Shown: piece after piece, positions 11,274 to 63,633 of the stretch
How the letters are laid out: every line of letters begins with the position of its first letter
Position numbering within the stretch: position 1 is the stretch's first letter
NCBI GenBank assembly: GCA_964418705.1
Contig: CAYQMV010000002.1
Coordinates: 9,743-73,742, forward strand
DNA from: an uncultured Sangeribacter sp.
GTDB taxonomy: Bacteria; Bacteroidota; Bacteroidia; Bacteroidales; Muribaculaceae
Direction: 5' to 3'
Length of the DNA: 64,000 bases
Notes under the pieces: generated by a model
The model's database searches: none
Told to the model about the DNA's origin: nothing
Seen by the model: only the letters and a program-made list of their open reading frames with translations
Translations under genes and position numbers: made by a program

Positions 11274-11293
11274 AGTTGTTTCGTTTTTGTACC

Positions 11294-12162: not shown

Positions 12163-12260
12163 AGTAGTAATTAAGCTTTTCGAGGTAGTTAACAGCCGGT
12201 TGAGTTTTTTTAAAATTATCCTAATTTATTTTTTTTACCACCTCGTTTATTTTTTTTTAT

Positions 12261-12268
12261 TACCTTTG
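12261..12268 (+). promoter_or_regulatory. Candidate -7 box TACCTTTG for the ROK-kinase operon
   Basis: Exact TAnnTTTG match, 44 nt upstream of the ATG at 12312. Confidence 0.45.
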
Positions 12269-12311
12269 TGGAATCTATTGTTTATAATGAATACTCTCTA
12301 TTGTAATTGAA

Positions 12312-21417: not shown

Positions 21418-21474
21418 ATTCATATTATGTGTGGGCGCGGAGGTCAGCCGCCGCGCCCGCACACTTTCTCTTTT

Positions 21475-45636: not shown

Positions 45637-45668
45637 TTTGGAAAATTTGAAAATAGCTGTTAAATTTG
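45637..45668 (+). promoter_or_regulatory. Promoter of paralog 1 (-33 TTTG, 20-nt spacer, -7 TAAATTTG)
   Basis: TTTG at 45637-45640 and TAAATTTG at 45661-45668. The architecture matches 49587-49618 upstream of paralog 2. Confidence 0.6.
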
Positions 45669-45815: not shown

Positions 45816-47090
45816 ATGAATAGACTTTTTACGTTATCGATGGTTGCCGCAATGGCAATGACCGCGGTGAGCGCCAACGCTTCATTGCGTGATGATTTGG
45901 TGGGTTCATATACCGGAGCCGACCATGGTTATTCTTATTTCGCTTCTTACGAAACCTATGTCTCCTACACATGGAATGCCGGAGAGGGTGAGAACGCTCC
46001 CATGACCATTGAGGCTGGAGATGCCGCCGATGCCGTGGTACTTAAAAATTTCTTCCCCGGATTTTCCAACATTGGTTCTCCGGAGTTGAAAGGTACAGTG
46101 GTTGAGGATACCCAATATGATGGATATTTGGGATATATCAAAATCACACCGCAGGATTGCGGCACTTTCCATTATGACAAAGATGGAAATGACTATCCGA
46201 TGAAGTTCTCCGGCGCATATGATAGCGATGGATGGGCTGGATACACTGAGGACACGCTGCTTGAGGCTGATTTGTGGATTAGCTCCGACGGCTTCATCAG
46301 CACATACGGCAACGGATGGGCTTTGTGCTATCTCTATTCCAATGGATATTATTACTATGGTATCTATGGCGGTTCTGATTCCAATGACGGATTCACCAAA
46401 ATCGAAACCACTCCCTCCAACTCCGTGCGCGACAGTTATATCGGCAAATACAATGGCTTCATTGTAGCGGACTTGGATATCGTGGTTAATGAGAAGGCGC
46501 AAGTGAGATATGATTACGATGGTGTCAACAACGAGTATGTTGAGTTCGTGGCAGGCGAGGGCGCCGATGATATCGTGATCAAGAATCTTATTCCTACCGG
46601 ATTCAACTATATCTCCGCACCTGAGATTCCGGCTAAGATATTTGCTAGCGACAAGTATAAAGGCTACCGTGCCTACGTGGAAATCCAACCTCAGAAACTT
46701 GGCACTATGACAATTGAAGGAAAAGAGTACGACACATGGATCGGCGCTGATTGGGTTTTCCAATCTCATTTCTGCACCGCTCCTACGGAGCCGGCATATT
46801 TCTATATCGCCAACAACGGTGAAATTGAGGTGGACTATACCGGATGGTCTTTGTTTATCGATCTCAATGGTGATCAATCGGAGTATGGCATGGTGTTCGC
46901 CGCCGGACAGAATTTGGATACCCTCTATCCTATGAATGACAGTGTGAAGGGCATTGAGTCTGTTGACGAGAGCGACGCTCCGGTGGTGTACTATAACTTC
47001 AATGGTGTGCGCATGGATGGCAACAACCTCCTCCCGGGCATGTATATCAAACGCCAGGGAAGCAAAGCAACAAAAGTTGTGGTTAGATAG
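45816..47090 (+). CDS. Secreted protein with two copies of an uncharacterised ~170-aa module and a T9SS-type C-terminal sorting domain (paralog 1)
   Basis: Signal peptide ...AVSANA/SL. Modules start at SLRDDLVGSYTG and SVRDSYIGKYNG. The C-terminus VYYNFNGVRMDGNNLLPGMYIKRQGSKATKVVVR resembles Por/T9SS sorting domains. Confidence 0.8.
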   Translation: MNRLFTLSMVAAMAMTAVSANASLRDDLVGSYTGADHGYSYFASYETYVSYTWNAGEGENAPMTIEAGDAADAVVLKNFFPGFSNIGSPELKGTVVEDTQYDGYLGYIKITPQDCGTFHYDKDGNDYPMKFSGAYDSDGWAGYTEDTLLEADLWISSDGFISTYGNGWALCYLYSNGYYYYGIYGGSDSNDGFTKIETTPSNSVRDSYIGKYNGFIVADLDIVVNEKAQVRYDYDGVNNEYVEFVAGEGADDIVIKNLIPTGFNYISAPEIPAKIFASDKYKGYRAYVEIQPQKLGTMTIEGKEYDTWIGADWVFQSHFCTAPTEPAYFYIANNGEIEVDYTGWSLFIDLNGDQSEYGMVFAAGQNLDTLYPMNDSVKGIESVDESDAPVVYYNFNGVRMDGNNLLPGMYIKRQGSKATKVVVR

Positions 47091-47136
47091 CAGTGAGTAG
47101 ATAATAGATATTAGATAAATATTTATATAGAGGTCG

Positions 47137-47189
47137 GGACCTTTAAGGACTTTAACGCAGATGTGAGGTGTTAAGGAACTTAAAGGTCC
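47137..47189. terminator. Long imperfect hairpin between convergent genes
   Basis: ggacctttaag (47137-47147) pairs with cttaaaggtcc (47179-47189). It is followed by tttcat. Confidence 0.5.
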
Positions 47190-47249
47190 TTTCATCATTC
47201 ATAATTTATCATTCATAATTTATAATTACTTCATTCATCATTCATTCAC

Positions 47250-47972
47250 TTATTCGTGCGGTAGCTTCTCGCAACGCGGGGCTCCCTCTCCTTCAGGAGA
47301 GGGTGAGGGGTGAGGCTTCCCATTAAAAGCGGAGTAGGGGAGAAAGATGTCGCCGACTGCGGTTTTACGGGTGTTGGTATGTTTTTCATCGGTGGTGTGT
47401 TTTTCATCGGTGGTGTGTTTTTCATTGGTGTCGTTTTTCCCATTAGTTGAGGCGAGTTCAATGAAGATGCCGGAGGTGTCGCTGCGATAACCGAGGACTT
47501 GAGACCAAGGATAGAAAAATTCACGCTGCGGAAGCAACGGGGATTCAGTGGATGTTTTTGATGAATTCGACTCTATAGAGGCGACGGTCTTGTCGGGGTT
47601 CTCATCGGTGCTGTTTTGTTCCTCCTCCGGAGATTCTTTGGGAGCGTATGTTGTGATTAGGAGTCCGTCCGGGGAGAATGTGAGGGTGTGCGGTAGGAGA
47701 TTGAGGGCGTTCTCAAGGAGCATTCCGTGGTTGAAATAGAAAAGGAGGGCTATCATGGGGAGAACGAGGAGAATGAGCATGAAGCCTACGATGATGAAAC
47801 GGAGGTCGAAAAGGAACCCCGCCGCGAATAACAGCAGAGCCGCCAGACTCGCCGTGGTGATCCACCAAAAGCCATGGCGCGAAATCAAATGTCGGAGCAT
47901 TGCTCCGCGCTTCATCTTATATATGGGAGTGGTGGTTAGATGCGGGAGTGGTGAGTGTGAGGATGTGGGCAT
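47250..47972 (-). CDS. Hypothetical membrane protein with internal hexapeptide repeats
   Basis: Two hydrophobic helices (WWITTASLAALLLFAAGFLF, FIIVGFMLILLVLPMIALLFYF). The start could instead be MKRGAML (47915). Confidence 0.55.
   Translation of the reverse strand: MPTSSHSPLPHLTTTPIYKMKRGAMLRHLISRHGFWWITTASLAALLLFAAGFLFDLRFIIVGFMLILLVLPMIALLFYFNHGMLLENALNLLPHTLTFSPDGLLITTYAPKESPEEEQNSTDENPDKTVASIESNSSKTSTESPLLPQREFFYPWSQVLGYRSDTSGIFIELASTNGKNDTNEKHTTDEKHTTDEKHTNTRKTAVGDIFLPYSAFNGKPHPSPSPEGEGAPRCEKLPHE
47376..47447 (-). repeat. In-frame 18-bp tandem repeat, about 4 units, encoding (T/N)(N/D)EKHT
   Basis: Units lie at 47376, 47394 and 47412, with a degenerate one at 47430. The protein reads NDTNEKHTTDEKHTTDEKHTNT. 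Confidence 0.9.
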
Positions 47973-48916: not shown

Positions 48917-48953
48917 AGTATTTTGGATTTATGTTATTATTTCCTGTTGCCTT

Positions 48954-49036
48954 CTATTAATAGCTTTCTGTTGTCTTCTATTAATAGCTTCTTGTTGCCT
49001 TCTATTAATAGCTTTTTGTCGGTTTTCTATTAATAG
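48954..49036. promoter_or_regulatory. Four phased copies of the perfect 10-bp palindrome CTATTAATAG within a 24-bp tandem unit
   Basis: Palindromes lie at 48954-48963, 48978-48987, 49002-49011 and 49027-49036 (spacing 24, 24, 25). The first is 38 nt upstream of the nucleoside phosphorylase ATG (48916, minus strand). Confidence 0.6.
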
Positions 49037-49088
49037 AGCTTTCTGTTAAAGTTTTCTATATATTCCCTCGAATATGATAAACGTTTAA

Positions 49089-49277
49089 CTAACGGAATTG
49101 GTTGATAGCCTCCACATATTCGAAGCCGGCGGCTCGCAGACGTCGCGTAAGCTCCTCTTGCTCCACATCAAGGTCGCGGCATAGCGAGTCAAGGGTGTCG
49201 TAGCCGTCGCGCAGCTTCATGTTGACCATACTGAGCAGCATGAAGGGGTCTTTGGGTAAATTCGAGTTTGTTGTCAT
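49089..49277 (-). CDS. DUF4250-like small protein (62 aa)
   Basis: MTTNSNLPKDPFMLLSMVNMKLRDGYDTLDSLCRDLDVEQEELTRRLRAAGFEYVEAINQFR matches my recollection of DUF4250. A TACATTTG box inside the longer ORF supports the short start. Confidence 0.7.
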   Translation of the reverse strand: MTTNSNLPKDPFMLLSMVNMKLRDGYDTLDSLCRDLDVEQEELTRRLRAAGFEYVEAINQFR

Positions 49278-49302
49278 TATCTTGTTTGATACTATTTCTC
49301 CA

Positions 49303-49310
49303 CAAATGTA
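49303..49310 (-). promoter_or_regulatory. Candidate -7 box TACATTTG (minus strand) for the DUF4250-like gene
   Basis: Reverse complement of caaatgta, 26 nt upstream of the ATG at 49277. Confidence 0.45.
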
Positions 49311-49586
49311 GCTAAAAATCTTGATATTCTCACATTGACGGGGTAAATCTTGACGGAATCTTGATGAAAAAAAGATGTGGACTTGGCGTGAAAAAGAGGG
49401 ATTATGGCGGATTGTCAAAATTTTAGCATCTTCCTTGAAGTGCAAAGTGACAGAATTTGAGGTTGTATAGAAAATGAAAATAGCAAAATGATAGAATTTA
49501 GTCTGAGATAGGGTAGTTTCTTTGAATGGAAATATGCTTTTATTGGTAAAAATTTTTTTATTTCATGAAAAAATGTCTTTTGAAAA

Positions 49587-49618
49587 TTTGGATTGTAAAC
49601 GAAAATCTCTTAAATTTG
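49587..49618 (+). promoter_or_regulatory. Promoter of paralog 2 / SusC-SusD operon (-33 TTTG, 20-nt spacer, -7 TAAATTTG)
   Basis: TTTG at 49587-49590 and TAAATTTG at 49611-49618. The flanks AAAATTTGGA and TAAATTTGC are identical to those of the paralog 1 promoter. Confidence 0.6.
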
Positions 49619-49734
49619 CGGCATCTTCATGGATCGCGTTAAACCGAAAATTCATCATGGATCGATCGTGTTGAATGCAGCCTCTTCATGAGACCGTGAA
49701 ACGAGAACTCTATAAATAACTAAATCAAATACGT

Positions 49735-51009
49735 ATGTTTAAACTTATTACATCATCAATGCTCGTAGCGATGTTGGCTACAGCAGCGACAGCGTCCGCG
49801 TCATTGCGCGACCAACTAGTAGGTGAGTATCAAGGCAACGCCGGTGGATGGGAATACTCCACAGGGGAATTTGTCTATTACGATGTCAATTACGACGGAG
49901 TGAACAATGCCTATGTCTCCATTCAGGCAGGTACCGCCGATGACGAAGTGCTTATCTCTAACCTTGTCCCCTCCGGCTTCTCTTATCTTAAGCCTATCGG
50001 TCCGTTGAAAGGCAAATTGGTGGAACCGGCGAACTTCCAAGATTATATCGCTTGCATCGAAGTGGAGTCTCAAGAGGCATATCTTGTTTCCGACAGCGAC
50101 CAAGGTTACTTCGCAAGAGGATGGTATGTGGAGGAAGAGGATGGCGAGGAAACCGCTGACTGGTACAGCGCTCCTTACGAGTCCGCCCTTATTTATATCA
50201 ACGCCGACTATAGCATTTCACTTGCGAACTATGGATGGGGCGTTTATGTGTATGATGAGGATTATGGCTACTACTCCGTAGCTTACGGCGGTTCATCAGG
50301 CGACAAGCTCGTGAAAGTAGGCACCGCGCCCTCCACAGACACCGCTTTCCGCGACAAATTCCTCGGAAAATACACCGGCTTGATTGGCGGTACCGAGTAT
50401 TTGGTTAACTATGGAAGTTCATTCGAATTCACTTACGACGGCACTGAGAACCAATATGTTCAGATCGTAGCCGGCGAGGGTGACGACGATGTGGTGATTA
50501 AAAACCTTATCCCCACAAGCTATACCGCAATTTCCGCCGGTGATATCCCCGCCAAGCTTTACGCTTATGATGGATACGATGGATACCAAGGATATATCGA
50601 GGTCCAACCTCAGAAAATCGGATCGATGGTTTACTACGGATACACCCTTGACGCATGGTTCGGCGCCGCATGGAACAGCACGGATTATTGCTCAGGTCCC
50701 ACAGAAGCCGCATACTTCTATATCGCCAACGACGGCTCAATCGTGATGAACTTCACCGGATGGACTGTGTATATGGATTACAACAGTGACCAGACGACTT
50801 ACTATCCCGGTTTCTGCACAGGTTATAAGAATGACACCCTCACTCCCGTATCACTCGACGGTGTGAAGGCAATCGAATCTGTTGACGAAAGCGACGCTCC
50901 CGCAGTTTACTACAACTTCAACGGTGTGCGCGTTGACGGCGACAACCTCCTCCCCGGCATGTATATCAAACGCCAGGGCAACAAGTCTGTAAAAGTCCTT
51001 GTTAAATAA
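49735..51009 (+). CDS. Secreted twin-module protein with T9SS-type C-terminal sorting domain (paralog 2)
   Basis: Also 424 aa. Signal peptide ...ATASA/SL. Modules start at SLRDQLVGEYQG and AFRDKFLGKYTG. The C-terminus VYYNFNGVRVDGDNLLPGMYIKRQGNKSVKVLVK resembles a T9SS sorting domain. Confidence 0.8.
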   Translation: MFKLITSSMLVAMLATAATASASLRDQLVGEYQGNAGGWEYSTGEFVYYDVNYDGVNNAYVSIQAGTADDEVLISNLVPSGFSYLKPIGPLKGKLVEPANFQDYIACIEVESQEAYLVSDSDQGYFARGWYVEEEDGEETADWYSAPYESALIYINADYSISLANYGWGVYVYDEDYGYYSVAYGGSSGDKLVKVGTAPSTDTAFRDKFLGKYTGLIGGTEYLVNYGSSFEFTYDGTENQYVQIVAGEGDDDVVIKNLIPTSYTAISAGDIPAKLYAYDGYDGYQGYIEVQPQKIGSMVYYGYTLDAWFGAAWNSTDYCSGPTEAAYFYIANDGSIVMNFTGWTVYMDYNSDQTTYYPGFCTGYKNDTLTPVSLDGVKAIESVDESDAPAVYYNFNGVRVDGDNLLPGMYIKRQGNKSVKVLVK

Positions 51010-51028
51010 TTTTTGAAGATGGTGGTCC

Positions 51029-51045
51029 GGGGTCGTGGCGACCCC
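51029..51045 (+). other. GC-rich intercistronic hairpin without a T-run
   Basis: ggggtcg-tgg-cgacccc. An alternative outer pairing is gtccggg/cccggac. It lies between paralog 2 and SusC, and I saw no TAnnTTTG box before SusC. Confidence 0.5.
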
Positions 51046-51100
51046 ATGATCCCGGACTTCATATTCGAAACCTTATTTACCGTGAAAAAATATTTCGTAG

Positions 51101-54100
51101 ATGAAAGCAAAATTTTTCTTGATTCTTGCCTGCATACTATTGGGCGTAAGTGTAGTACAGGCACAGACGAAGCGCACTGTCAAGGGTGTCGTCACTTCCC
51201 AAGCGGATGGCGAGCCGGTGATAGGCGCGTCAGTGTTAGTTAAGGGTACCACTCTCGGCGACGCCACCGATGTGGATGGTCAGTTCACTATTCCTAATGT
51301 TTCGGAGTCTTACACCACTTTGGTAGTCTCTTATGTGGGGATGAAATCCAAGGAGGTGAAAATAGAGGCTGGGGAGATGCACATCATATTGGAGAGCGAG
51401 TCTCAATTGCTTGACGAAGTGATGGTGGTGGCATACGGAACAGCCACAAAATCCTCATTCACCGGCTCCGCCGCCGTGATGAAAGCTGATCAAATTGAAC
51501 AAACCCAAGTGTCGAATCCCCTCAACGCCATCGATGGAAAGGTGGCGGGCGTGCAGATGACCAACGCTACCGGACAACCCGGTGAAAGTTCACCTACAAT
51601 CCGTATCCGCGGTATCTCCTCAATCAATGCGGGCAACGACCCCTTGATTATAGTGGATGGTGCTCCTTACAGCGGCAGCGTAAGCAATATCAGCACCACC
51701 GATATCGAATCCATGACTATTCTTAAAGATGCTGCCTCCAACGCCCTCTACGGCGCGCGCGGTGCCAACGGCGTTATCTTGATCACAACCAAGAAGGGTA
51801 ACCACTCCGGCGACGCCACCGTCACTCTCGACGCCAAATGGGGCGGTAACTCCAAGGCAACTCAGAACTACAAATATATCACCAATCCCGCACAATACTA
51901 CGAGACTTATTACAAAGCCCTCTACAACAGCCGTATCGCCAAAGGCTCCACAGCCGCCGATGCCAATGTCTGGGCAAACAATAATCTTATCAGCGGAGCC
52001 AACGGCTTAGGCTATAATGTCTACAACGTGCCCGACGGTCAATACCTTATCGGAACCAACGGCAAACTCAACCCCAACGCCACTCTCGGCAATTTGGTGA
52101 ACTACAACGGACAGGAGTATCTCCTTACTTCCGACAACTGGCTCGACAACGCCTATAAGACAAGTCTCCGTCAGGAGTACAACCTCAGCGTGTCGGCCGG
52201 CAACGACAGAACCAACTTCTACGCTTCGGCAAGCTATCTCGACAACGACGGTATCACCGAGAACTCCGGCTATCGCCGTTTGACCACACGCCTCACCGCC
52301 GACACCCAAGCCAAATCGTGGCTGAAAGTAGGTGGTAACTTCGCTTACACCCACTATGAGACCAAGTCCACCTCCTCCGATGGTGACTCAAGCTCTTCGG
52401 GTAATATCTTCGCGGTGGCTAACAAGATGGCCCCCATCTATCCCCTTTATATCCGCGACGCTTTCGGCAACATCCTCACCGACGTGAACGGAAACCGCCG
52501 TTTCGACTATGGCGACGGTGCCAACGCCGGGATGGAGCGTCCCTATTTCTCGCTCACCAACGCGCTCTCCGACGCTATCTTGAACACCAACAAGAGCGGC
52601 GGCAACAGCGTCAACGCCACCGGCTTCGCTGAAATCCGTTTCCTCAACGACTTCAAATTCACCTCCAACAACAACGTCTCTGTGGATGAGGTGAGATACA
52701 ATATGGTTTCCAACCCCTATTACGGTTATGCCGCAAATAGTGGTGGTTACAACTACGTTTACCACTACCGCACCATGAACTACTCATTCCAACAATTGTT
52801 GAACTGGGACCGTTCATTCGGTAAGAACACTCTCGGTGTCCTCTTGGGACATGAGAACTACTGCTACCGCTACACCACTCTCGGCGGCGGTAAAGCCAAC
52901 ATCCTCAGCGAGTCAAATAAGGAGCTTGACGGCGCTATCATCAACGCCGAGATTACCTCCAACACCACCGACTACAACAACGAGGGTTATTTGATGAGGG
53001 CGCAATACGACTTCGATCAAAAATACTTCGGTTCATTCTCCATCCGCCGCGACGGTTCCTCACGCTTCCATCCCGATCACCGTTGGGGTACCTTCTGGTC
53101 GTTGGGCGGTGCGTATAATATGCACAAAGAGTCATGGTTCGACGTCGCATGGATAGATATGTTCAAAATCAAGGCATCCTATGGTGAGCAGGGTAACGAC
53201 AACATCGGTGAGTTCCGCTACGTTGATACTTACACCCTTGAAAACGGTGGAGGTCAGGTGGCTGTGGTTCCTTACCAAAAGGGTAACTCCACAATCACAT
53301 GGGAGAAGAACGGCAACTTCAACGCCGGTTTCGAGTTCTCCGTGCTCAATTCACGTCTCTCCGGCAGCGCCGAGTTCTTCTACCGCCGCACATCCGATAT
53401 GTTGTCGTGGGTATCACTCCCCGGCTCCTATGGATGGACAGGCTACTACGACAATATCGGTAATATGCAGAACCTCGGTGTCGAGATCGACCTCACAGCG
53501 AATATCATCAGCACCCGTGACTTCAATTGGAGCGTGAACGCCAATATGACATGGTACAAGAACAAGATCACCTCCATCTACGATAAGAACAAGACAATGA
53601 ACGTGGAGGGCCACGGAGGATACAACTCAAGCTATTACTACTATGGCGAGGGATGTTCACTCTATACCTTCTATCTCCCCGCTTACGCCGGAGTGGATGA
53701 GGATGGTCAGGCACTCTACTATTGCGATAAGACCGACGCCAACGGCAACACCGTCCGCGGCACCACCACCAAGTATGGCGATGAAGCCACTTACTATCTC
53801 TGTGACTCCGCACTTCCATCCGTATATGGCGGTTTCGGCACCACATTGGAATATAAAGGATTCGACCTCACCGTGAACTTCGCTTACTCCATCGGCGGCA
53901 AGGTCTACGACAGCGACTATCAAGCAGCCATGTCGTCGCCCACCACCACCAACCGTGGTTATGCGTTCCACGCTGATATCCTCGATTCCTGGTCCACCGA
54001 CAACAAATCTTCGAATATTCCGCGTTTGGCTTACGGCGACCAATACACCGCCGCGATGTCCGACAGATTCCTCACCGACGCGTCTTACCTCTCATTGCAG

Positions 54101-54307
54101 AACATCAACTTCGGCTATTCATTGCCGCAGAACGTGACCCGCAAGATGAAATTGCAGCGAGTGAGATTCTATCTATCCGCCGACAATATTTGGTTGTGGA
54201 GCAAACGTCAGGGACTTGACCCGCGTCAATCCTTCAACGGTACCGCCACCGCCTCATATTACGCGCCTATCCGCACAATCTCCGGTGGTTTTAACGTAAC
54301 CTTCTAA
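51101..54307 (+). CDS. SusC/RagA-family TonB-linked transporter (second copy)
   Basis: Contains VKGVVTSQADGEPVIGASVLVKGTTLGDATDVDGQFTI and TonB box VMVVAYGT. 1068 aa. There is no N-terminal STN signalling extension. Confidence 0.95.
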   Translation: MKAKFFLILACILLGVSVVQAQTKRTVKGVVTSQADGEPVIGASVLVKGTTLGDATDVDGQFTIPNVSESYTTLVVSYVGMKSKEVKIEAGEMHIILESESQLLDEVMVVAYGTATKSSFTGSAAVMKADQIEQTQVSNPLNAIDGKVAGVQMTNATGQPGESSPTIRIRGISSINAGNDPLIIVDGAPYSGSVSNISTTDIESMTILKDAASNALYGARGANGVILITTKKGNHSGDATVTLDAKWGGNSKATQNYKYITNPAQYYETYYKALYNSRIAKGSTAADANVWANNNLISGANGLGYNVYNVPDGQYLIGTNGKLNPNATLGNLVNYNGQEYLLTSDNWLDNAYKTSLRQEYNLSVSAGNDRTNFYASASYLDNDGITENSGYRRLTTRLTADTQAKSWLKVGGNFAYTHYETKSTSSDGDSSSSGNIFAVANKMAPIYPLYIRDAFGNILTDVNGNRRFDYGDGANAGMERPYFSLTNALSDAILNTNKSGGNSVNATGFAEIRFLNDFKFTSNNNVSVDEVRYNMVSNPYYGYAANSGGYNYVYHYRTMNYSFQQLLNWDRSFGKNTLGVLLGHENYCYRYTTLGGGKANILSESNKELDGAIINAEITSNTTDYNNEGYLMRAQYDFDQKYFGSFSIRRDGSSRFHPDHRWGTFWSLGGAYNMHKESWFDVAWIDMFKIKASYGEQGNDNIGEFRYVDTYTLENGGGQVAVVPYQKGNSTITWEKNGNFNAGFEFSVLNSRLSGSAEFFYRRTSDMLSWVSLPGSYGWTGYYDNIGNMQNLGVEIDLTANIISTRDFNWSVNANMTWYKNKITSIYDKNKTMNVEGHGGYNSSYYYYGEGCSLYTFYLPAYAGVDEDGQALYYCDKTDANGNTVRGTTTKYGDEATYYLCDSALPSVYGGFGTTLEYKGFDLTVNFAYSIGGKVYDSDYQAAMSSPTTTNRGYAFHADILDSWSTDNKSSNIPRLAYGDQYTAAMSDRFLTDASYLSLQNINFGYSLPQNVTRKMKLQRVRFYLSADNIWLWSKRQGLDPRQSFNGTATASYYAPIRTISGGFNVTF

Positions 54308-54313
54308 AATGCT

Positions 54314-55921
54314 ATGATGAAAATGAATAAGTTGTTTAAATATTCAATGATATTGGCAGTGGCGGCGCTCAGCACCAGCTGTCTTGACGAGGCGGTCTCC
54401 ACATCGCAGGTCACTCAAAGCGAGCTTGACAGCTCCTCCCGCGGCGCCGACGCGATCTTCTGGGGTATGCCCTCCATGCTCAACTATGTGGGTTCCCTCC
54501 CCACCTCCGACAATTCCTACGACTACGGCTATGGTTCGATGATGCACATACGCGACGTCATGACCGGGGATATGCCGGTGGCTTCCAGCAACTACGAATG
54601 GTACACCGCATGGATGACCAACTCCGGCAACGGCAACTACACCGTCGCCGCCCAGCTCGTGTGGTGGTACATGAACAAGATGGTGCTCGCCACCAACAAC
54701 AGCGTGGCTTACTTCTCCAAGGATGGAGAGGATAAGGGAAGACTCGGGGCTTCGCTCGCTTTCCGCGCCGCCATGTATCTTGACCTCGCCCGTATGTATG
54801 AGTTCCTCCCCAACGATAAGGTCAGCGGAGTGAACAGCTACGGCAACGATGTCACCAACCTCACCGTGCCTATCGTCACCGAGGAGACCACCCAGGAGGA
54901 GGCTTGCAACAACCCCCGTGTCTCCCACAAGGATATGTTTGAGTTCATCCTCTCCGACTTGAACCGCGCCGAGGAGAACATCACCGGCTTCGCACGCGAC
55001 GCTAAGACAGTGCCCGACCTCGGAGTGGTCTACGGCTTGAAGGCTCGTTTGTACATGTGGGATGAGGATTACGCCAACGCCGCCGAGTACGCCCGCAAGG
55101 CTATTTCCGCCTCCGGAGCCACTCCGTTGACGCAGAGCGAATGGCTCGACACCTCCGCAGGTTTCAACACCCTCGCCACCTCCTCATGGATGTGGGGCGC
55201 CCAGCAGACCGCCGAGAGCGCTTCCGTGAAGAGCGTCTACTACAACTGGACCTCATGGAACTGCAACGAGACTCTCTTCGGATATAACTACTACGGCACA
55301 TACACGATGATCGACAAATCAATGTACGACCGTATCTCCGACACCGACTTCCGCAAACTCTCCTACATCGCCCCCGAGGGTTCCATCCTCTCCGGCGCCG
55401 AGCCTTTGGTGGATGAATCTTTCCGTGAGACTTTCGACGAGTATTTCGCTTTGAAATTCCGTCCCGGATCCGGCAACTATAAGGATTACACCATCGGTGC
55501 AGTGACCGACTATCCTTTGATGCGTGTGGAGGAGATGTATTTCATCGAAGCCGAGGCTAAGGCGCACGCCAGCGCCGCCGAGGGAAAAGCCCTTCTTGAG
55601 AGCTTCATGAAGACTTACCGCGACCCCAACTACGTATGCAACGTTTCCTCCATCGAGGATGTGGTTGAGGAGATTGTCTTCCAAAAACGTGTTGAGCTAT
55701 GGGGCGAGGGTCAAACTTTCTTCGACATCAAACGTCTGAATATGTCGGTGACCCGCGGTTACGAGGGATCCAATTTCTCCGGTAACTCCGTGATGAACAC
55801 CAACGGTCGTCCCGCATGGATGAATTTCGTGATGCTTAAGTTCGAGGGTGACAACAACTCCGCGGTGACTAAATGGAACAACCCCGACACCGACGGTTGC
55901 TACGATGTAATTGAACTATAA
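54314..55921 (+). CDS. SusD/RagB-family lipoprotein (second copy)
   Basis: Lipobox LSTSCLDE. It starts 6 nt downstream of SusC. Confidence 0.9.
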   Translation: MMKMNKLFKYSMILAVAALSTSCLDEAVSTSQVTQSELDSSSRGADAIFWGMPSMLNYVGSLPTSDNSYDYGYGSMMHIRDVMTGDMPVASSNYEWYTAWMTNSGNGNYTVAAQLVWWYMNKMVLATNNSVAYFSKDGEDKGRLGASLAFRAAMYLDLARMYEFLPNDKVSGVNSYGNDVTNLTVPIVTEETTQEEACNNPRVSHKDMFEFILSDLNRAEENITGFARDAKTVPDLGVVYGLKARLYMWDEDYANAAEYARKAISASGATPLTQSEWLDTSAGFNTLATSSWMWGAQQTAESASVKSVYYNWTSWNCNETLFGYNYYGTYTMIDKSMYDRISDTDFRKLSYIAPEGSILSGAEPLVDESFRETFDEYFALKFRPGSGNYKDYTIGAVTDYPLMRVEEMYFIEAEAKAHASAAEGKALLESFMKTYRDPNYVCNVSSIEDVVEEIVFQKRVELWGEGQTFFDIKRLNMSVTRGYEGSNFSGNSVMNTNGRPAWMNFVMLKFEGDNNSAVTKWNNPDTDGCYDVIEL

Positions 55922-55939
55922 CCCAATAATTTTGAAACT

Positions 55940-56917
55940 ATGTTTATCAAGAAACTATATATATTGGCATTGGCGGTAGCCGCTATGGGTGCGGTGTCGT
56001 GTGAGGATGAGGCTGACTACGCTCCTGCGTCGGTGCCTACCAACGACCAAGTCTATTTTCCGAATAATGTCCGTAGGGCAGTGCAGCTGGAGAAGGGTCA
56101 GACCTCTTTCTCCGTGGATGTTTACCGCATCGGGACCTCCGATGCCATCACGGTGCCCGTCACCGCCACCGGCTCGGATGCCGAAGTGTTTGTGCTCCCT
56201 TCGTCGGTGACATTCGCCGCCGGTGAAAGCAGAGCCACCATGAACGTTGGTGTGAATTTCGATAAGGTGCAATCCGGCGTGGCTTACACCCTCGACTTCA
56301 CTCTCGATTCAGGCTATACCAGCGAGTATGGCGACGCTCTGTGCAGCTATTCCGTAGAGTACTTCCGTAAGGGTGATCCTTTGCGCGACCTTGTCGCCGG
56401 ATATTATGAGGGTACCTCCGCCGGCTATGACTATTGGACAAGAGCATGGTATGCCACCGCCTTCAGCTATAACTATAATGACGGTGCCAACGAGGCCCTT
56501 CGCATACTCCCCGGTGATGGTGACGCGGATGTGTCGGTACGCAATCTCTTCCCCACTACTGAATACCTTAATGTCACCGATGTCGTGGGTGAGGTAATCA
56601 CCTCCTCCGATTATGAGGGATATTTGGGATATATCCTCCTTAAGCCCCAGGTGGTCGGCAGTTATACCACCCAAGGTGGTTTCGGCGACTTTGATGTGAC
56701 ATTCGCCGCCGCATGGGCCACAGGCAGCTACGCCACCGCCCCCACCGATGACATGGAGGTATGGATCGCCGGAACCGGTTCCGTCGCCGACGGCACTGCG
56801 GAAATCACAAGCGTGGATTTCAACGGCGCCGGTTGGGCGTTGATGTTCGGTTACGATGCATGGGGAATGTGGTACTACGCCGCTTGCGGTGGTGCCGTGG
56901 TCACCCCCGTGAAATAA
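55940..56917 (+). CDS. Lipoprotein: N-terminal Ig-like domain plus one copy of the module found in the two T9SS-tagged paralogs
   Basis: Lipobox GAVSCEDE. The module PLRDLVAGYYEG...DADVSVRNLFP...YEGYLGYILLKPQ...GW aligns with the paralog modules. Confidence 0.8.
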   Translation: MFIKKLYILALAVAAMGAVSCEDEADYAPASVPTNDQVYFPNNVRRAVQLEKGQTSFSVDVYRIGTSDAITVPVTATGSDAEVFVLPSSVTFAAGESRATMNVGVNFDKVQSGVAYTLDFTLDSGYTSEYGDALCSYSVEYFRKGDPLRDLVAGYYEGTSAGYDYWTRAWYATAFSYNYNDGANEALRILPGDGDADVSVRNLFPTTEYLNVTDVVGEVITSSDYEGYLGYILLKPQVVGSYTTQGGFGDFDVTFAAAWATGSYATAPTDDMEVWIAGTGSVADGTAEITSVDFNGAGWALMFGYDAWGMWYYAACGGAVVTPVK

Positions 56918-57013
56918 ATCGCAGTATATGAAATCTACTGTAAATTCGTGAAATAAACCGTACTGTATAATTTCACTCCGGCGGAGGGGTGTCTCTGCCC
57001 TCCGCCCAAACAT

Positions 57014-57054
57014 AAAGAAGGACGCATCAACGAGGATGCGTCCTTCTTTTATTA
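57014..57054. terminator. Bidirectional rho-independent terminator
   Basis: aaagaaggacgcatc (57014-57028) pairs with gatgcgtccttcttt (57035-57049). The hairpin is flanked by an A-run and a T-run. Confidence 0.8.
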
Positions 57055-57124
57055 TAACGTTGGTTTTGTCACAACGTTGTTTTAAAGTATGTTTTGTTGC
57101 CGTATGTTTGTCGGATGAATATGC

Positions 57125-58816
57125 CTACATCATGCAAAGCACAAGCACTTGCGCGGTGATCACACGCATGAACATCGACAGCGGATAAACGGTGGAGTAT
57201 GCCACCGCCGGAGCGTCGTTGTTCGCCACCTTGTTGCCATAGGCGAGTGCCGGTGGGTCGGTGTAAGCTCCCGACATAAGTCCGAGGATATATAGATAAT
57301 TCACTTTGAATTTCCATCGCGCCACGATGCCGATCACCATCAAAGGTATGGTGGTGATGATGAAACCGTAGAGCACCCACATGGCTCCGTTCACGTTGAA
57401 CACCGTCTCCACGAAGTTGGTTCCGGCGCTCAATCCCACCGACGCGAGGAAGAGGCAGATGCCTATTTCGCGGAGCAATAGGTTGGCGGAGGTGTTGGTG
57501 TAGGTGATGAGGTGGAATTTATGTCCGTAAGCACTGATTAGGATAGCCACCACGAGTGGACCGCCAGCCAAACCGAGCTTCATGGGCACCGACATTCCGG
57601 GGAACTGCAAGGGTATGCTACCCACGAGGATTCCGAGGAAGATTCCGATGAACATTGTGATGAGATTAGGCTCGTTGAGACGTTTCAAAGAGTTGCCGAG
57701 TTTGTCGGCGAGGCGGTCTATATCCTCCAATTTGCCCACCACGGTGATGCGGTCGCCGAGTTGGAGACGGAGGTTGGGCGACGCGAGGAGATCCACGCCG
57801 GCGCGGTTCACGCGTGTGGCGTTGAGGGTATATCCGCGGCGTAGACGTAGGGAACCCAATTGCACGCCGTTGTATTCTGTTTTCGTAACCACGATGCGGC
57901 GCGACACCACGGGACCGCGGTCCTCCGCCCATTCCTTTTCAATCTTGGGCCCGATGAAGCGCGTGAAGACCTCCTCGTCCTGCACGGAGCATACCAAGAG
58001 GAGCACATCGTCGATCTCGATGGTTGTCTCGGAGGTGGGGATCACCACGTGTCCGTTAGGTTTCTCCAGGCGCGAGACCACGAAGTTGCAGCTGATCACA
58101 GTGTGGAGCTTCGCAAGGGAGAGCCCGGAGATCAGTTCGTTGGTGACGCGCATGGTCACGATGTGGGGCACGAGCTGCGAGCTGTGTTGGTCCTCCTCCA
58201 CAGCTTTGATTTCATCGTCGATGTTGATTCTGAAAATCTTCTTGATCAGAATCATTGTGGCGATGATGCCGATCACACCGAGAGGATAAGCGGCGGCGTA
58301 TCCCATAGACATCTCTTGAGACGCCTCGTAAGCTTCGGGATGCACTTGCAGAATGCTTTGTTGGGCCGCTCCAAGACCCGGAGTGTTGGTGACGGCGCCA
58401 CTGAGCACGCCCACCATCTGGGTGAAGGTGGTGGAACCCTCTGCCCCTCCTTGGATAAAATAGATACTCACAGTCACCGCCACATTGAGCAGGATGCCGA
58501 TCACTGCCAACAGGTTCAACTGCATGCCACCCTCCTTAAATGATGAAAAGAATCCGGGACCCACCTGCATACCGATGGAGAAAATGAAAAGAATCAGACC
58601 GAACTCACGGAGAAAATGGAGCGTGTTGTCCTCGACGATGTAGCCTAAGTGGCCCATGAGGATGCCCACGAAGAGCACGAATGTCACGCCTAATGAAACC
58701 CCGAAGATTTTGATTTTACCTAAATATATTCCCGCAAAAATCACAAAGGAATACAACAGAATGGAACTTGCCAATGATGTGTTTTCGGGGCTCAATAGGC
58801 TAATTAACCAGTCCAT
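57125..58816 (-). CDS. YidE/YbjL-type putative transporter (duplicated Asp-Al_Ex membrane domains flanking two TrkA_C/RCK_C domains)
   Basis: 563 aa. The hydrophobic N- and C-terminal halves are separated by a soluble segment of about 170 aa with VGKLEDI-type RCK_C motifs. Confidence 0.8.
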   Translation of the reverse strand: MDWLISLLSPENTSLASSILLYSFVIFAGIYLGKIKIFGVSLGVTFVLFVGILMGHLGYIVEDNTLHFLREFGLILFIFSIGMQVGPGFFSSFKEGGMQLNLLAVIGILLNVAVTVSIYFIQGGAEGSTTFTQMVGVLSGAVTNTPGLGAAQQSILQVHPEAYEASQEMSMGYAAAYPLGVIGIIATMILIKKIFRINIDDEIKAVEEDQHSSQLVPHIVTMRVTNELISGLSLAKLHTVISCNFVVSRLEKPNGHVVIPTSETTIEIDDVLLLVCSVQDEEVFTRFIGPKIEKEWAEDRGPVVSRRIVVTKTEYNGVQLGSLRLRRGYTLNATRVNRAGVDLLASPNLRLQLGDRITVVGKLEDIDRLADKLGNSLKRLNEPNLITMFIGIFLGILVGSIPLQFPGMSVPMKLGLAGGPLVVAILISAYGHKFHLITYTNTSANLLLREIGICLFLASVGLSAGTNFVETVFNVNGAMWVLYGFIITTIPLMVIGIVARWKFKVNYLYILGLMSGAYTDPPALAYGNKVANNDAPAVAYSTVYPLSMFMRVITAQVLVLCMM

Positions 58817-58844
58817 ATTAATAGTTTGATATAAAATTTGGGCG

Positions 58845-58852
58845 CAAAGTTA
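58845..58852 (-). promoter_or_regulatory. Candidate -7 box TAACTTTG (minus strand) for the transporter gene
   Basis: Reverse complement of caaagtta, 29 nt upstream of the ATG at 58816. Confidence 0.5.
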
Positions 58853-58950
58853 CTAATAATTTGCGAGATACTCTATATGCCCCAAAAACGCCATATAAAA
58901 TTTTCTTGATTTTTTTGTGGATAAATGAGCTATTTATTAACAAAAATAAT

Positions 58951-58958
58951 TAATTTTG
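58951..58958 (+). promoter_or_regulatory. Candidate -7 box TAATTTTG for the phosphohexomutase gene
   Basis: Exact TAnnTTTG match, leaving a leader of about 105 nt before the ATG at 59069. Confidence 0.45.
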
Positions 58959-59068
58959 TGGCTAAATATCCATGTGCCGCTCCCATGGTGGGGAAAGTCT
59001 CTTCAGGGAGCGGACTACGAGTGGAAAAGATAAGTGTTACACCCTAAGGTAAAAAAGAATATCTAATT

Positions 59069-60817
59069 ATGAATAACGACGAATTAGTGAGAATGGTGGA
59101 GGCGAAAGCCCGGCAATGGTTGTCGCCCTCATACGATGAAGCCACGCGCGCGGAGGTTAAAGCGATGCTTGAGGACTCCGACAAGACAAACCTTATCGAA
59201 TCATTTTATAAGGATTTGGAGTTCGGCACCGGCGGCTTGCGCGGCATTATGGGCGCCGGATCGAACCGTATGAACATCTACACAGTGGGAGCCGCCACAC
59301 AAGGACTCGCCAACTATCTCAATGAGACGTTTAAAGGACAGAAAGTAAGCGTGGTGGTGGGTCACGACGTGCGCAACAACTCCCGCAAGTTCGCAGAGCT
59401 CGCCGCCGACATCTTCTCCGCCAACGGCATCAAAGTATATCTTTTCGACAGCTGCCGTCCCACTCCCGAAATCAGCTATGCCATCCGCAAACTCGGATGC
59501 CAAAGCGGCGTGGTGGTGACCGCGAGCCATAACCCCAAGGAATACAACGGCTACAAAGCTTATTGGAGCGACGGCGCCCAGATGATCGCCCCCCACGATG
59601 TGAAGACCATCGAGTATGTGAACGCCATTACTTCCGTCGACCAAATCAAATTCGCACCCAACCGCGACCTTATCCAAATCATCGGTAAGGACGTGGATGA
59701 TATATATCTTGAGCAAATCAAGACCCTCTCCTTGAGTCCCGACGCCATAGCGCGCCATAAGGACATGAAGATTGTCTATACCCCCATCCATGGCACCGGT
59801 TCGATGCTTATCTACGATTCCTTGGCTCGCTGGGGATTCGAGAACGTGATCCACGTGCCCGAGCAGGATGTGCAGAGCGGCGATTTCCCCACAGTGGCGT
59901 CTCCCAACCCGGAGAACCCCGAGGCTATGGCAATGGCTATCGCCAAAGCTAAGGAGACCGGGGCTTCAGTGGTGCTCGCATCCGACCCCGACGCCGACCG
60001 CATCGGTCTGGTGGTGCGCGACAAGTCCGGCAACTACCAGCTCGTGAACGGCAACCAAATAGTGATGATTTTCCTTTACTATCTCATCACACGCAATGTG
60101 GAACTCGGTATCCTCAAAGGGGATGAGTACTGTGTGAAGACAATCGTCACCACGGAGACCATCAAGCGTATCGCCGACGCTAACAATATCAAATGCTACG
60201 ACTGCTTCACCGGCTTCAAATGGATCGCCAACGTGATGCGCGAGAACGAGGGTAAAGCCCGCTATCTCGGCGGCGGCGAGGAGAGCTATGGATTCTTGGC
60301 TGAGGATTTCTGCCGCGACAAAGATTCCGTCTCCGCCATCTCCTTGATGTGCGAAATCGCCGCATGGGCGGCCGACAAGGGTATGAACCTCTACGAACTC
60401 CTTCTCGACATCTACGCCGAATACGGATTCTCCCGTGAGCGCGGAGTGAGCGTGGTGCGTCCCGGAAAGAGCGGCGCCGAGGAGATCGTGGCTATGATGA
60501 AGAACTTCCGTGAGAACGCTCCCAAGACTCTGGGCGGCAGCGAAGTGGTGGCGGTGAAAGACTACAGCGACCTCACTTGCCGTTGCTTCAAGACCGGGGC
60601 TGTGGAGAAACTCGACTTCCCCACCACATCCAATGTGCTCCAGTTCTTCACCGCCGGTGGCGATAAAGTGTCAATCCGTCCTTCCGGCACCGAACCTAAG
60701 ATTAAATTCTACGTTGAGGTGCGTGAGGATATGAAGAATAAAGATGACTATGAGAAGATTGTGGCTCAAGCGGAGACACACATCGACCATATTCTCAAAG
60801 ATTTAAATGTGATGTAA
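59069..60817 (+). CDS. Phosphoglucomutase/phosphomannomutase-family phospho-sugar mutase
   Basis: Catalytic phosphoserine loop VTASHNPKEYNGYK. Mg loop LASDPDADR. Sugar loop GGGEESYG. Confidence 0.9.
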   Translation: MNNDELVRMVEAKARQWLSPSYDEATRAEVKAMLEDSDKTNLIESFYKDLEFGTGGLRGIMGAGSNRMNIYTVGAATQGLANYLNETFKGQKVSVVVGHDVRNNSRKFAELAADIFSANGIKVYLFDSCRPTPEISYAIRKLGCQSGVVVTASHNPKEYNGYKAYWSDGAQMIAPHDVKTIEYVNAITSVDQIKFAPNRDLIQIIGKDVDDIYLEQIKTLSLSPDAIARHKDMKIVYTPIHGTGSMLIYDSLARWGFENVIHVPEQDVQSGDFPTVASPNPENPEAMAMAIAKAKETGASVVLASDPDADRIGLVVRDKSGNYQLVNGNQIVMIFLYYLITRNVELGILKGDEYCVKTIVTTETIKRIADANNIKCYDCFTGFKWIANVMRENEGKARYLGGGEESYGFLAEDFCRDKDSVSAISLMCEIAAWAADKGMNLYELLLDIYAEYGFSRERGVSVVRPGKSGAEEIVAMMKNFRENAPKTLGGSEVVAVKDYSDLTCRCFKTGAVEKLDFPTTSNVLQFFTAGGDKVSIRPSGTEPKIKFYVEVREDMKNKDDYEKIVAQAETHIDHILKDLNVM

Positions 60818-62340: not shown

Positions 62341-63633
62341 ATGATGACTCGATTATTCGAATGGCTTGATGCTTCCACCAGCAATTTCATGGCGGCATCC
62401 ACAATAAAGAAAGAACTTGCGAAAGCCGGGTTCCAAGCCCTTGACATGGCGGAGGAATGGCGGCTGATCCCCGGAGGGAAATATTATGTTGAGAAGAACG
62501 GCACCGCGGTGTTCGCGTTCGTGTGCGGCACGAAGAGTCCCGCCGACGCCGGCTTCCATATCATAGCGTCGCACAGCGACAGCCCTTGTTTCAAAATCAA
62601 ACCCAAAGCTGAGATGCTATGCGAGGGTGGTTTGCTGAAACTCAACGTGGAGAAATATGGCGGCGGCATCCTATACACATGGTTCGACCGTCCGTTGTCG
62701 TTCTCGGGCAGGGTGATGCTCCGCGGCGAAAATCCGCTGCGTCCCGTGCAGCGTGTGGTGGATTATAAGAAGTCCATCGCCACCATCCCCCATCTCGCCA
62801 TTCATTTCAACCGCGCCGTCAACGAGGGTAATCCCTTATCCATGCAGAAGGATATGCTTCCTGTGGTTGGACGCTTCACCGCGGAGGAGATTGCGGAGAT
62901 GAGGGAGAAGGGTGGTTTTGTGAAGATGATTCTCGCCGAGCACCTCGGAGTGGCTCCGGAGGATATTCTTGACTATGAGCTTTCGCTCTATCCTGTGGAG
63001 AAAGCGGGCTACGTGGGCTACCACAATGAGTTGTTCCAATCCGGACGTATCGACGACCTCTCCATGGCGTTCGCGTCGTTGGAGGCGTTGCTCGACAAAT
63101 GCGACGTGGCGAGCGAAGCCACGCGTGTGGTGGCGGTGTTCGACAATGAGGAGACCGGCTCCGGCACCAAGCAGGGGGCACATTCACCGATTCTCGCCAA
63201 CATTTTCCGCCGTCTGAGCGGCGACGGGGAGGCGTATATCCGCGCTGTGGCTAAATCGTTCATGATCTCCGCCGACGACGCCCACGGATGGCACCCCAAT
63301 TATAATGAGAAATATGACCCCACCAACCATGCCTTGATAGGGGAGGGCCCCGCCATAAAAATCAACGCCAACTGCAAGTATATGAGCGACGCCCAAGGCT
63401 CCGCCGTGTTCCGCACACTCTGTGAGAACGCCGGAGTGAAATATCAATACTTTGTCAACCACAGTGACGTGGCGGGAGGAAGCACCCTCGGCAATATCCT
63501 CACGGCGCAGATGGAACTCTCCGGAGTGGATATAGGAAATCCTATATGGGCGATGCATTCGGCGCGCGAGACAGCCTCGGTGGACGACCATATCGCTATC
63601 GTCAAAGTGTTTGAATATTTTTTTGGTTTGTAG
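62341..63633 (+). CDS. M18-family aminopeptidase
   Basis: Contains the IIASHSDSPCFKIKP block, DNEE.GS and further metal-ligand regions typical of M18/M42 enzymes. Confidence 0.85.
   Translation: MMTRLFEWLDASTSNFMAASTIKKELAKAGFQALDMAEEWRLIPGGKYYVEKNGTAVFAFVCGTKSPADAGFHIIASHSDSPCFKIKPKAEMLCEGGLLKLNVEKYGGGILYTWFDRPLSFSGRVMLRGENPLRPVQRVVDYKKSIATIPHLAIHFNRAVNEGNPLSMQKDMLPVVGRFTAEEIAEMREKGGFVKMILAEHLGVAPEDILDYELSLYPVEKAGYVGYHNELFQSGRIDDLSMAFASLEALLDKCDVASEATRVVAVFDNEETGSGTKQGAHSPILANIFRRLSGDGEAYIRAVAKSFMISADDAHGWHPNYNEKYDPTNHALIGEGPAIKINANCKYMSDAQGSAVFRTLCENAGVKYQYFVNHSDVAGGSTLGNILTAQMELSGVDIGNPIWAMHSARETASVDDHIAIVKVFEYFFGL

Follow-up and report, generated by a model that had tools for sequence, protein, structure and literature searches.

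A SusC/SusD unit of an uncultured Sangeribacter sp. without recognised glycan enzymes and with one rare module in both of its accessory proteins

Introduction

In gut Bacteroidota, nutrients enter mainly through SusC/SusD (SusCD) pairs, and to an appreciable share of these no substrate has been assigned. We report here on a SusCD unit at 49587-57054 of a 64,000-nucleotide stretch of DNA (hereafter the window; GenBank assembly GCA_964418705.1, contig CAYQMV010000002.1, positions 9,743 to 73,742 of the forward strand) from an uncultured Sangeribacter sp. of the Muribaculaceae. The unit comprises four genes on the plus strand, encoding in this order a secreted protein called paralog 2 (its counterpart, paralog 1, is encoded further upstream), SusC, SusD and a second lipoprotein. 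An earlier note, made from the letters of this DNA alone and whose gene positions are kept here, had described it as a SusCD operon with no carbohydrate-active enzyme (CAZyme), peptidase or dedicated regulator, apparently co-transcribed with the gene of a type IX secretion system (T9SS) cargo protein, and as a departure from classical polysaccharide utilization loci (PULs). Indeed, no such enzyme or regulator domain was found in the unit, but it is less unusual than the note implied, since enzyme-less and peptidase-linked SusCD loci are documented (PMC11467351, 10.1101/755678) and 12 of the 59 SusCD loci of B. fragilis GS077 are likewise without genes of discernible function (4 of the 59 have peptidases; PMC11467351).

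The SusC of the unit is related to that of BT2261-BT2264 of B. thetaiotaomicron (5fq6, 121 bits), a locus which also combines SusCD with two accessory lipoproteins (5fq6-5fq8). BT2261-BT2264 is not known to contain CAZymes and its structure has reportedly been solved with bound peptide. However, its accessory proteins are unrelated in sequence to those described here and no T9SS partner is found there; to our knowledge, Bacteroides are generally regarded as being without a T9SS. The best solved relative of our SusC is RagA (6sli, 369 bits in a PDB sequence search) of the RagAB system of Porphyromonas gingivalis, a SusC/SusD-type pair which has no CAZymes either and imports oligopeptides (10.1101/755678, PMC11817032). 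P. gingivalis also has T9SS surface cargo, and the relatives of our unit are peptidase-linked, as will be seen below. RagAB differs by the absence of a lipoprotein in the SusE position and of an upstream module protein, and a peptide substrate, established for RagAB, is only predicted for the unit. SusCD without glycan enzymes is furthermore a feature of ButCD and of function-unknown B. fragilis loci (PMC11467351), as well as of the two-gene pair BT1439-BT1440, which confers susceptibility to vancomycin, a glycopeptide, and shows no carbohydrate phenotype (PMC8121099), but none of these has an accessory pair with a shared module.

The reading that we favour, with a probability of roughly one half, is that the four genes together form an outer-membrane uptake operon which imports oligopeptides or glycopeptides, not polysaccharide, in the manner of RagAB and with the help of two surface capture proteins. 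CAZyme-less SusCD being already established, the central surprise of the earlier note is modest. What is new here is the presence of one rare, unannotated module in both a T9SS-type surface protein and a SusE-position lipoprotein of the same operon, together with a conserved intercistronic hairpin and a peptidase-linked clade of the transporter.

Results and discussion

Organization of the unit

Paralog 2 (49735-51009, +) is a secreted protein of 424 residues, and its gene is followed after a 91-bp gap by that of a SusC/RagA-family TonB-dependent transporter (51101-54307, +; 1068 residues). The gene of the SusD/RagB-family lipoprotein (54314-55921, +; 535 residues, Cys23 followed by LDE) starts 6 nt past the SusC stop, and that of the surface lipoprotein (55940-56917, +; 325 residues, Cys21 followed by EDEAD) starts 18 nt past the SusD stop.

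SusC matches the full-length model TIGR04056 with 777.9 bits (cut-off 368.25) and the signature model TIGR04057 with 65.3 bits (cut-off 46.2). Its N-terminal part consists of a CarboxypepD_reg-like domain (PF13715, residues 27-109) and the Plug (PF07715, residues 117-225; 68 bits), and no match to an STN domain was obtained in the Pfam scan, as the earlier note had claimed. Since STN marks transducers coupled to extracytoplasmic function (ECF)/anti-sigma pairs, the domain content of SusC places it in the non-signalling subclass. SusD matches PF07980 (32.7 bits, cut-off 23.1), carries the lipoprotein cysteine and is encoded immediately 3' of SusC, features which assign it by sequence to its family. 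Its SusD-like relatives in the PDB sequence search are 3lew (95 bits) and 3snx (88 bits). We take 3snx to be BT1439, which a literature search for 3SNX/3LEW, yielding chemistry papers only, did not confirm.

Enzyme content was judged by Pfam and NCBIfam models, in place of dbCAN, and these detected no CAZyme (glycoside hydrolase (GH), polysaccharide lyase or carbohydrate esterase), peptidase or regulator domain within 49587-57054. The statement that no glycoside hydrolase lies within the unit is true for the unit itself, a beta-mannan PUL ending 4 kb upstream. Genes for a hybrid two-component system, SusR or an ECF/anti-sigma pair, which the earlier note had also reported as absent, were not found among the large open reading frames (ORFs) scanned, including those scanned in 45.8-63.6 kb, a few ORFs of the window being left unscanned. 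The only two regulator-type domains in the scanned ORFs are an AraC-type helix-turn-helix domain (21427-22347) and a ROK protein (12312-13271). Judged by these models, the unit has neither of the two defining features of a canonical PUL, namely a CAZyme in the unit and an adjacent sensor or regulator.

A rare module shared by the two accessory proteins

Paralog 2 and the lipoprotein are matched by no model of Pfam or NCBIfam, not even at E <= 10, and they share a module of ~ 170 residues, whose boundaries were set with a local hidden Markov model (HMM). Three clear copies are present in the unit: two in paralog 2, where they occupy 49801-50319 and 50347-50850 between the signal peptide (49735-49800) and a short T9SS-type C-terminal tail (50851-51006), and one in the lipoprotein (56378-56911), where it follows an Ig-like N-domain of some 125 residues (~ 56027-56374). 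The lipoprotein module and the second module of paralog 2 are 31% identical (E = 5e-20), and paralog 2 as a whole is 44% identical to paralog 1.

The family is very small. When 5.8 billion proteins were searched with single sequences, paralog 2 had only four relatives and the lipoprotein three (a profile search of the same word-indexed database with the module alignment A1 gave nothing). Searching 1.84 billion cluster representatives exhaustively with an HMM gave 30 matches, of which about 21 are real. These show two architectures and no third. In one, a signal peptide is followed by one to three modules and then the tail, and extra domains are sometimes present at either terminus; the other is a lipoprotein in which the N-domain precedes a single module. 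For the extra domains of P0042 and P0043, which may be starch-binding-like Ig modules, PDB sequence searches gave no match.

The AlphaFold2 model of module 2 (predicted local distance difference test (pLDDT) 90.3, predicted template modelling score 0.88) is confident and shows an all-beta fold with an N-terminal helix and 14 beta-strands. No relative of the module was found by sequence-profile searches of Pfam and the PDB, and no PDB structure matched it significantly by Foldseek, the best being 3n91, a Bacteroides ovatus protein of unknown function (E = 0.019, template modelling score (TM) 0.34). In the local HMM alignment of 33 domain hits, which excludes one protein, conservation is confined to Gly, Tyr and a single Asn and Gln each, and no catalytic pattern of Ser, His, Asp, Cys or Glu can be seen. 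Within the limits of what sequence and fold reveal, the module is therefore read as serving in binding or structure and not in catalysis. Within the same limits, the finding that the earlier note had named as fatal to its interpretation, a catalytic domain in an accessory protein, did not turn up.

The whole lipoprotein was modelled with a pLDDT of 73.6, and of about 85-92 in the N-domain. Its top Foldseek matches are two-domain DUF1735-type Bacteroides lipoproteins (3nqk/3sot, 3p02 and 4qni; E = 5e-6 to 2e-5), of which 4qni is annotated as 'auxiliary nutrient binding protein BT3507', and the N-domain resembles Calx-beta-type Ig domains (target-normalised TM 0.62-0.68). DUF1735 itself was undetected in the lipoprotein by the Pfam sequence model. 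The EDEAD following Cys21 presumably corresponds to the acidic surface-export signal of Bacteroidota lipoproteins, which it resembles. Hence, the position, modelled architecture and signal of the lipoprotein match those of a predicted surface binding protein of the SusE/surface glycan-binding protein (SGBP) type. With SusE/SusF, SGBP-B and the DUF1735-type proteins (4qni, 3nqk/3sot, 3p02) it shares the place directly 3' of SusD and the combination of an Ig-like N-terminal spacer with a beta-rich C-terminal domain. It differs from the DUF1735-type proteins in its C-terminal module, which has no significant match to theirs (the best being 3n91).

The C-terminal tail of paralog 2

The description of paralog 2 as T9SS cargo stands in part. 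The curated models for C-terminal domains (CTDs) of the T9SS, TIGR04183 and PF18962, matched neither the tails nor the whole proteins even at E <= 10. These models were made for the long type of CTD, with about 70-80 residues. In Prevotella intermedia, a 2025 study has shown by experiment that short CTDs, with 40-55 residues, are cleaved and glycosylated; according to its authors they had been observed in no other species, and their motifs are a G/I (G-I/V) cleavage region, B (Y..G and a basic residue), D (GxY-I) and E (K..K..K) (PMC11969387). The tail of paralog 2, which has ~ 50 residues and reads ..GVKAIESVDESDAPAVYYNFNGVRVDGDNLLPGMYIKRQGNKSVKVLVK, fits these motifs by eye, that is, by inspection and not by a statistical model. 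All family members that were inspected at the C-terminus have kept it, and it is found in LRR_5 proteins as well. One preprint predicts T9SS cargo in Muribaculaceae (PMC13404670). It is thus reasonable to regard paralog 2 as predicted T9SS cargo of the short-CTD class.

The likeness to the P. intermedia cargo lies in the length and motifs of the tail and in the BspA-type leucine-rich repeat (LRR) proteins that carry it here too; the difference is that the putative carriers here come from Muribaculaceae- and Barnesiella-like metagenome-assembled genomes (MAGs). If the assignment is right, short T9SS signals would not be confined to P. intermedia. Searched with a profile of the tail, the window contains it on paralogs 1 and 2 only, and against the PDB the same profile gave a weak, non-significant but positionally suggestive match to the C-terminus of the beta-N-acetylhexosaminidase 8bbl (E = 1.1). 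The tail is common to BspA-type LRR and other proteins of Muribaculaceae-, Barnesiella- and Prevotella-like MAGs (P0005-P0012; P0037-P0046), and two further tail-bearing entries lie at 12091-12690 and 9806-11509 of locus L033.

Conserved gene order and peptidase neighbours

The comparative synteny that the earlier note had proposed as a check supports the unit. The full order of module protein, SusC, SusD and module lipoprotein is found in four other loci, L003 (same species as the window), L007, L009 and L010, and the module gene is directly 5' of SusC in L002, L023 and L024 as well, whose contigs end inside SusC. Across these seven loci SusC is 62% to 99% identical to that of the window. In profile scans of genome contigs, the close relatives L008 and L009 are labelled uncultured Sangeribacter (Muribaculaceae) MAGs, and L010 and L011 bear the labels Barnesiella and Bacteroides, respectively. 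A 51-aa gene called after paralog 2 in L005 and L006 was rejected as a gene-calling artefact at contig ends, where the DNA does not differ from that of the window.

Scans with the lipoprotein alignment A3 revealed 21 more distant loci in Prevotella, Bacteroidaceae and other Bacteroidales MAGs and metagenomes. Their SusC and SusD are 40-54% and 27-54% identical to those of the window and they have the lipoprotein N-domain in common with it, but the C-terminal part of their lipoproteins is different and comprises about 450-500 residues. For one of these, the ~ 620-aa lipoprotein of L013, a PDB sequence search gave nothing.

The gene following the lipoprotein is often that of a peptidase. Among the closer relatives with a module-bearing lipoprotein, it encodes in L010 an S9 peptidase, whose best PDB match (8wt1, 139 bits) spans propeller and catalytic domain. 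In the wider clade it encodes a C10 peptidase with an I69 propeptide (L013/14, L033), an M6 peptidase (L017/29, L037) or an M16 peptidase (L028, L025), and in L035 a C10 peptidase is encoded nearby in convergent orientation on the opposite strand. The corresponding gene encodes a GH78 rhamnosidase in L034 and is unrelated in L015, L019, L030/31 and L032. When loci are grouped by SusD at 60% identity, peptidases occur in 6 of the ~ 9 subclusters of the clade, as compared with the 4 of 59 SusCD loci (roughly 7%) of B. fragilis GS077. Moreover, several of the clade peptidases end in CTD-like tails, and the tail profile matches the C-terminus of the C10 peptidase of L033.

In three of the distant loci (L014 1-8249, L015 1-8248 and L037 1-6262) the SusC 5' end is present a second time upstream of the main SusC, as an inverted and near-identical copy, and an ORF of 310-400 aa separates the two. 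We take these copies to resemble the invertase-driven, phase-variable SusC/SusD shufflons of Bacteroides.

Transcription of the unit

A Bacteroidetes sigma-A type promoter is found upstream of paralog 2 (49587-49618, +), with the -33 element TTTG at 49587-49590, a 20-nt spacer and the -7 element TAAATTTG at 49611-49618. It is a perfect match and the sole plus-strand site of the motif scan in 49450-54900, and even with one mismatch allowed no -33/-7 promoter was detected in 50300-51100, which covers the 3' part of paralog 2 and the gap. The earlier note's claim that the only canonical promoter precedes paralog 2 is thus borne out by the scan. A scan for E. coli-type sigma-70 promoters gave 22 matches against 17 expected and is uninformative for Bacteroidetes. 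The 5' untranslated region of paralog 2 shows no structure above that of shuffles (z = +0.45), and the window contains no riboswitch, leader or other Rfam element at either gathering or permissive thresholds.

The gap between paralog 2 and SusC holds an imperfect stem-loop of 26 bp (51011-51070, +; -35.3 kcal/mol, z = -4.2) whose fold was matched by 0 of 200 shuffles. The earlier note had seen this hairpin as a smaller structure (51029-51045); its existence is confirmed and its size is corrected. A strain variant with AC changed to GT at 51041-51042 keeps the pairing by G-U wobble. Furthermore, hairpins of differing sequence occur at the equivalent position of six orthologous loci (L002, L007, L009, L010, L023 and L024), three of which have a T-run behind them (L009, L010 and L023). 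Between the orthologous hairpins and the SusC ATG 20-50 nt are left, hence there is no room for a promoter there. The hairpin is probably a leaky intercistronic terminator or a stabiliser of the RNA 3' end. A conserved motif ACC(A/G)TGAA was also noticed 3' of the hairpin and 0-17 nt before the SusC start, in the window (51074-51085) and in L002, L007, L009, L023 and L024; it could be a translation-initiation or RNA-processing signal.

At its 3' end the unit is closed by a bidirectional terminator (56980-57058) which faces the convergent YidE-type gene at 57125-58816. The strong bidirectional terminator that the earlier note had placed at 57014-57054 was recovered as a stem at 57014-57049 followed by UUUUAUUAU, with an additional hairpin at 56980-57006; the structure as a whole reaches -54 kcal/mol (z = -6.1) and the second hairpin has a U-run behind it.

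The locus is present in seven public gut metatranscriptome runs, and in four of them RNA-derived contigs lie over all four genes and end before 56925 (4/4). None of the runs has RNA contigs over the flanks 56925-59200 and 47244-47704, a pattern that speaks against DNA carry-over. Contigs join SusC to SusD (54166-54517) and SusD to the lipoprotein (55731-55968). At the gap, contig X3 (50979-51129) crosses from paralog 2 into SusC and contig X2 (50891-51071) stops exactly at the 3' foot of the hairpin. As evidence for an operon these contigs are suggestive only. The co-transcription proposed earlier is thus supported by one RNA contig that bridges the gap but, given the conserved terminator-like hairpin, not as simple co-transcription; transcription probably yields a strong monocistronic paralog-2 message together with read-through.

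Predicted function and alternative readings

The suggestion of the earlier note that the substrate may not be a glycan receives support from the peptidases (S9, C10, M6 and M16) encoded beside the lipoprotein in related loci, although this support is indirect for the unit itself, which has none. Given this peptidase-linked clade and RagA as the best solved relative of SusC, peptides or glycopeptides are the most likely substrate class. In the importer that we propose, the hairpin at 51011-51070 would end most transcripts and so provide abundant module protein, and read-through would supply SusCD and the lipoprotein. Paralog 2 would be exported by the T9SS through its short C-terminal signal, cleaved and anchored at the cell surface, and the lipoprotein would be flipped to the surface, where its DUF1735-like Ig domain would hold it on SusCD in the SusE/SGBP position. 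The ligand caught by the two module proteins would be one and the same and would be handed over to the SusD lid and the SusC barrel, for TonB-powered import by a 'pedal-bin' mechanism. Degradation, if any, would be left to enzymes of other community members or to enzymes encoded elsewhere, so that the absence of enzymes from the unit need not mean that the substrate requires no processing, a possibility raised in the earlier note.

Several observations weigh against a peptide importer of this kind. Among the unit and its closest relatives, L010 alone has a peptidase gene, the PDB sequence search with SusD did not detect RagB at E <= 0.01, and the margin by which SusC prefers RagA (369 bits) over glycan SusCs (342 and 317 bits) is small. 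The putative binding module is aromatic-rich, like carbohydrate-binding modules (CBMs), the relative L034 has the GH78 rhamnosidase downstream, and paralog 1 stands at the end of a mannan PUL that lies 4 kb from the unit. As for the operon, the RNA contigs are assembled, unstranded and of depth 2-6, and a single one spans the gap between paralog 2 and SusC.

A more specific form of the favoured reading is possible and is put forward tentatively. The two accessory proteins may constitute a two-tier capture relay, in which a T9SS-anchored tandem binder and a SusCD-docked lipoprotein, both with one ligand-binding fold not described before, deliver the same peptide or glycopeptide to a RagAB-like importer and the conserved leaky terminator sets their stoichiometry. 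We know of no other non-catalytic T9SS cargo that serves as a dedicated substrate-capture partner of SusCD, and this would be the first. If true, such a relay would also mark out, among gut Bacteroidales, a clade of loci devoted to peptide utilisation. More generally, the association of the SusC/SusD/lipoprotein clade with four peptidase families points to protein or peptide foraging by gut Muribaculaceae, Barnesiella and Prevotella, a niche far less studied than glycan foraging, and the rare module offers one expressible and screenable domain with which the ligand of an orphan transporter may be found.

We consider it unlikely that the unit instead assists the beta-mannan PUL, or some other glycan system, as an auxiliary arm for glycan uptake, with the modules as a new CBM family and the enzymes supplied by the upstream PUL. 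The beta-mannan/glucomannan PUL (18193-45509) is followed directly by paralog 1, it was found in the same metatranscriptomes as the unit, the modules are rich in Tyr and Trp, and the SGBP position and DUF1735-like architecture of the lipoprotein are typical of glycan PULs; GH78 in L034 fits here as well. However, no CBM family was detected in the module proteins and the neighbourhoods of the clade are dominated by peptidases, not CAZymes. Moreover, the SusC of the unit is only 26.7% identical to that of the PUL, the two SusDs show no meaningful similarity, and adjacency to the PUL is not conserved: L002, whose SusC is 88% identical, has protein kinase genes upstream, and L010 has a two-component system upstream in addition to the S9 peptidase downstream. 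From this non-conserved adjacency and the unrelated SusC and SusD, the unit is taken to be an independent locus and not the second transporter of the mannan PUL, with co-regulation of the two being possible. Should the module bind a glycan instead of a peptide, it would represent a new CBM family.

Doubtful too is the reading in which paralog 2 is independent, e.g. a surface adhesin or coat protein linked to the unit by position only, and in which SusC, SusD and the lipoprotein form the true unit, expressed by read-through or from an unrecognised promoter. The strong terminator-like hairpin stands behind the module gene in every locus, adhesin-like BspA-type LRR proteins bear the same tail, and the operon model is limited by L011, where SusC, SusD and the lipoprotein have their own promoter and no module gene, and by module genes that lie apart from any SusC (paralog 1, L020 and L022). 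On the other hand, that the lipoprotein bears the same module, with its ~ 21 representatives in 1.84 billion, is hard to reconcile with chance, and the module gene is directly 5' of this clade of SusC in seven loci. Between the hairpin and SusC there is neither room nor a motif for a promoter, and one RNA contig crosses the gap.

Scavenging of a small molecule (cofactor, nucleoside, lipid or pigment), with the module as a calycin- or avidin-like pocket binder acting like a hemophore for SusCD, would need no processing enzymes and would suit the divergent DUF4250 and nucleoside phosphorylase genes conserved in two Muribaculaceae lineages, but it is improbable: the weak Foldseek likeness to avidin, streptavidin, lipocalin and Cap15 barrels is not significant (E > 0.3; TM 0.2-0.37 query-normalised, <= 0.54 to smaller targets), the module has 14 strands against 8 in calycins, the phosphorylase neighbourhood is absent in L010 and no riboswitch or other Rfam element accompanies the unit.

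Neighbouring genes in the window

The mannan PUL, a separate unit, encodes GH36, phosphomannose isomerase, the AraC regulator, GH5 and SASA and AXE1 esterases, its own SusC/SusD pair with an SGBP that carries TIG and SGBP_B_XBD domains and a 502-aa unknown protein, as well as two GH26, GH94, GH130, an MFS_2 transporter, a 2-epimerase and an HD protein. Paralog 1 (45816-47090, +), at its 3' end, has two modules and a short CTD and is not followed by a SusC. Its promoter (45637-45668) is built like that of paralog 2, the two genes agree fully in the 17 nt that precede the ATG, and the strong terminator hairpin of paralog 1 is located at 47136-47190 (-34.5 kcal/mol, z = -5.2).

Between paralog 1 and the unit, the minus strand encodes a DUF4250 protein, a PNP_UDP_1 nucleoside phosphorylase and a 240-aa unknown protein. 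The ORF of the latter (47250-47972, -) includes an 18-nt unit repeated 3.1 times in tandem (47375-47430), and its L002 orthologue is 44.7% identical. A 24-nt unit repeated 4.2 times in tandem, with the palindrome CTATTAATAG in each copy, lies between the DUF4250 and phosphorylase genes (48944-49047) and looks like a putative array of regulator binding sites. The DUF4250 ORF (49089-49445, -) has 118 aa from TTG as called and its orthologues have 61-62 aa; translation probably begins close to 49277, and a TACATTTG -7 box lies at 49310-49303, which would leave a divergent promoter region of ~ 450 bp in common with paralog 2.

Downstream, and within 6 kb of the unit, are the genes of the YidE/AspT-type (aspartate:alanine antiporter-like) transporter (57125-58816, -) and of an M18 aspartyl aminopeptidase (62341-63633, +). 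The nearness of these cytoplasmic or inner-membrane amino-acid and peptide functions to the unit may be a coincidence. At the other end of the window, a TonB-dependent receptor of a second type, in which only the Plug was detected, is paired with a DUF4249 protein (4475-7804 and 7925-10819), and these adjoin the genes of a C-5 cytosine DNA methylase and an AAA-ATPase/PDDEXK_9 protein.

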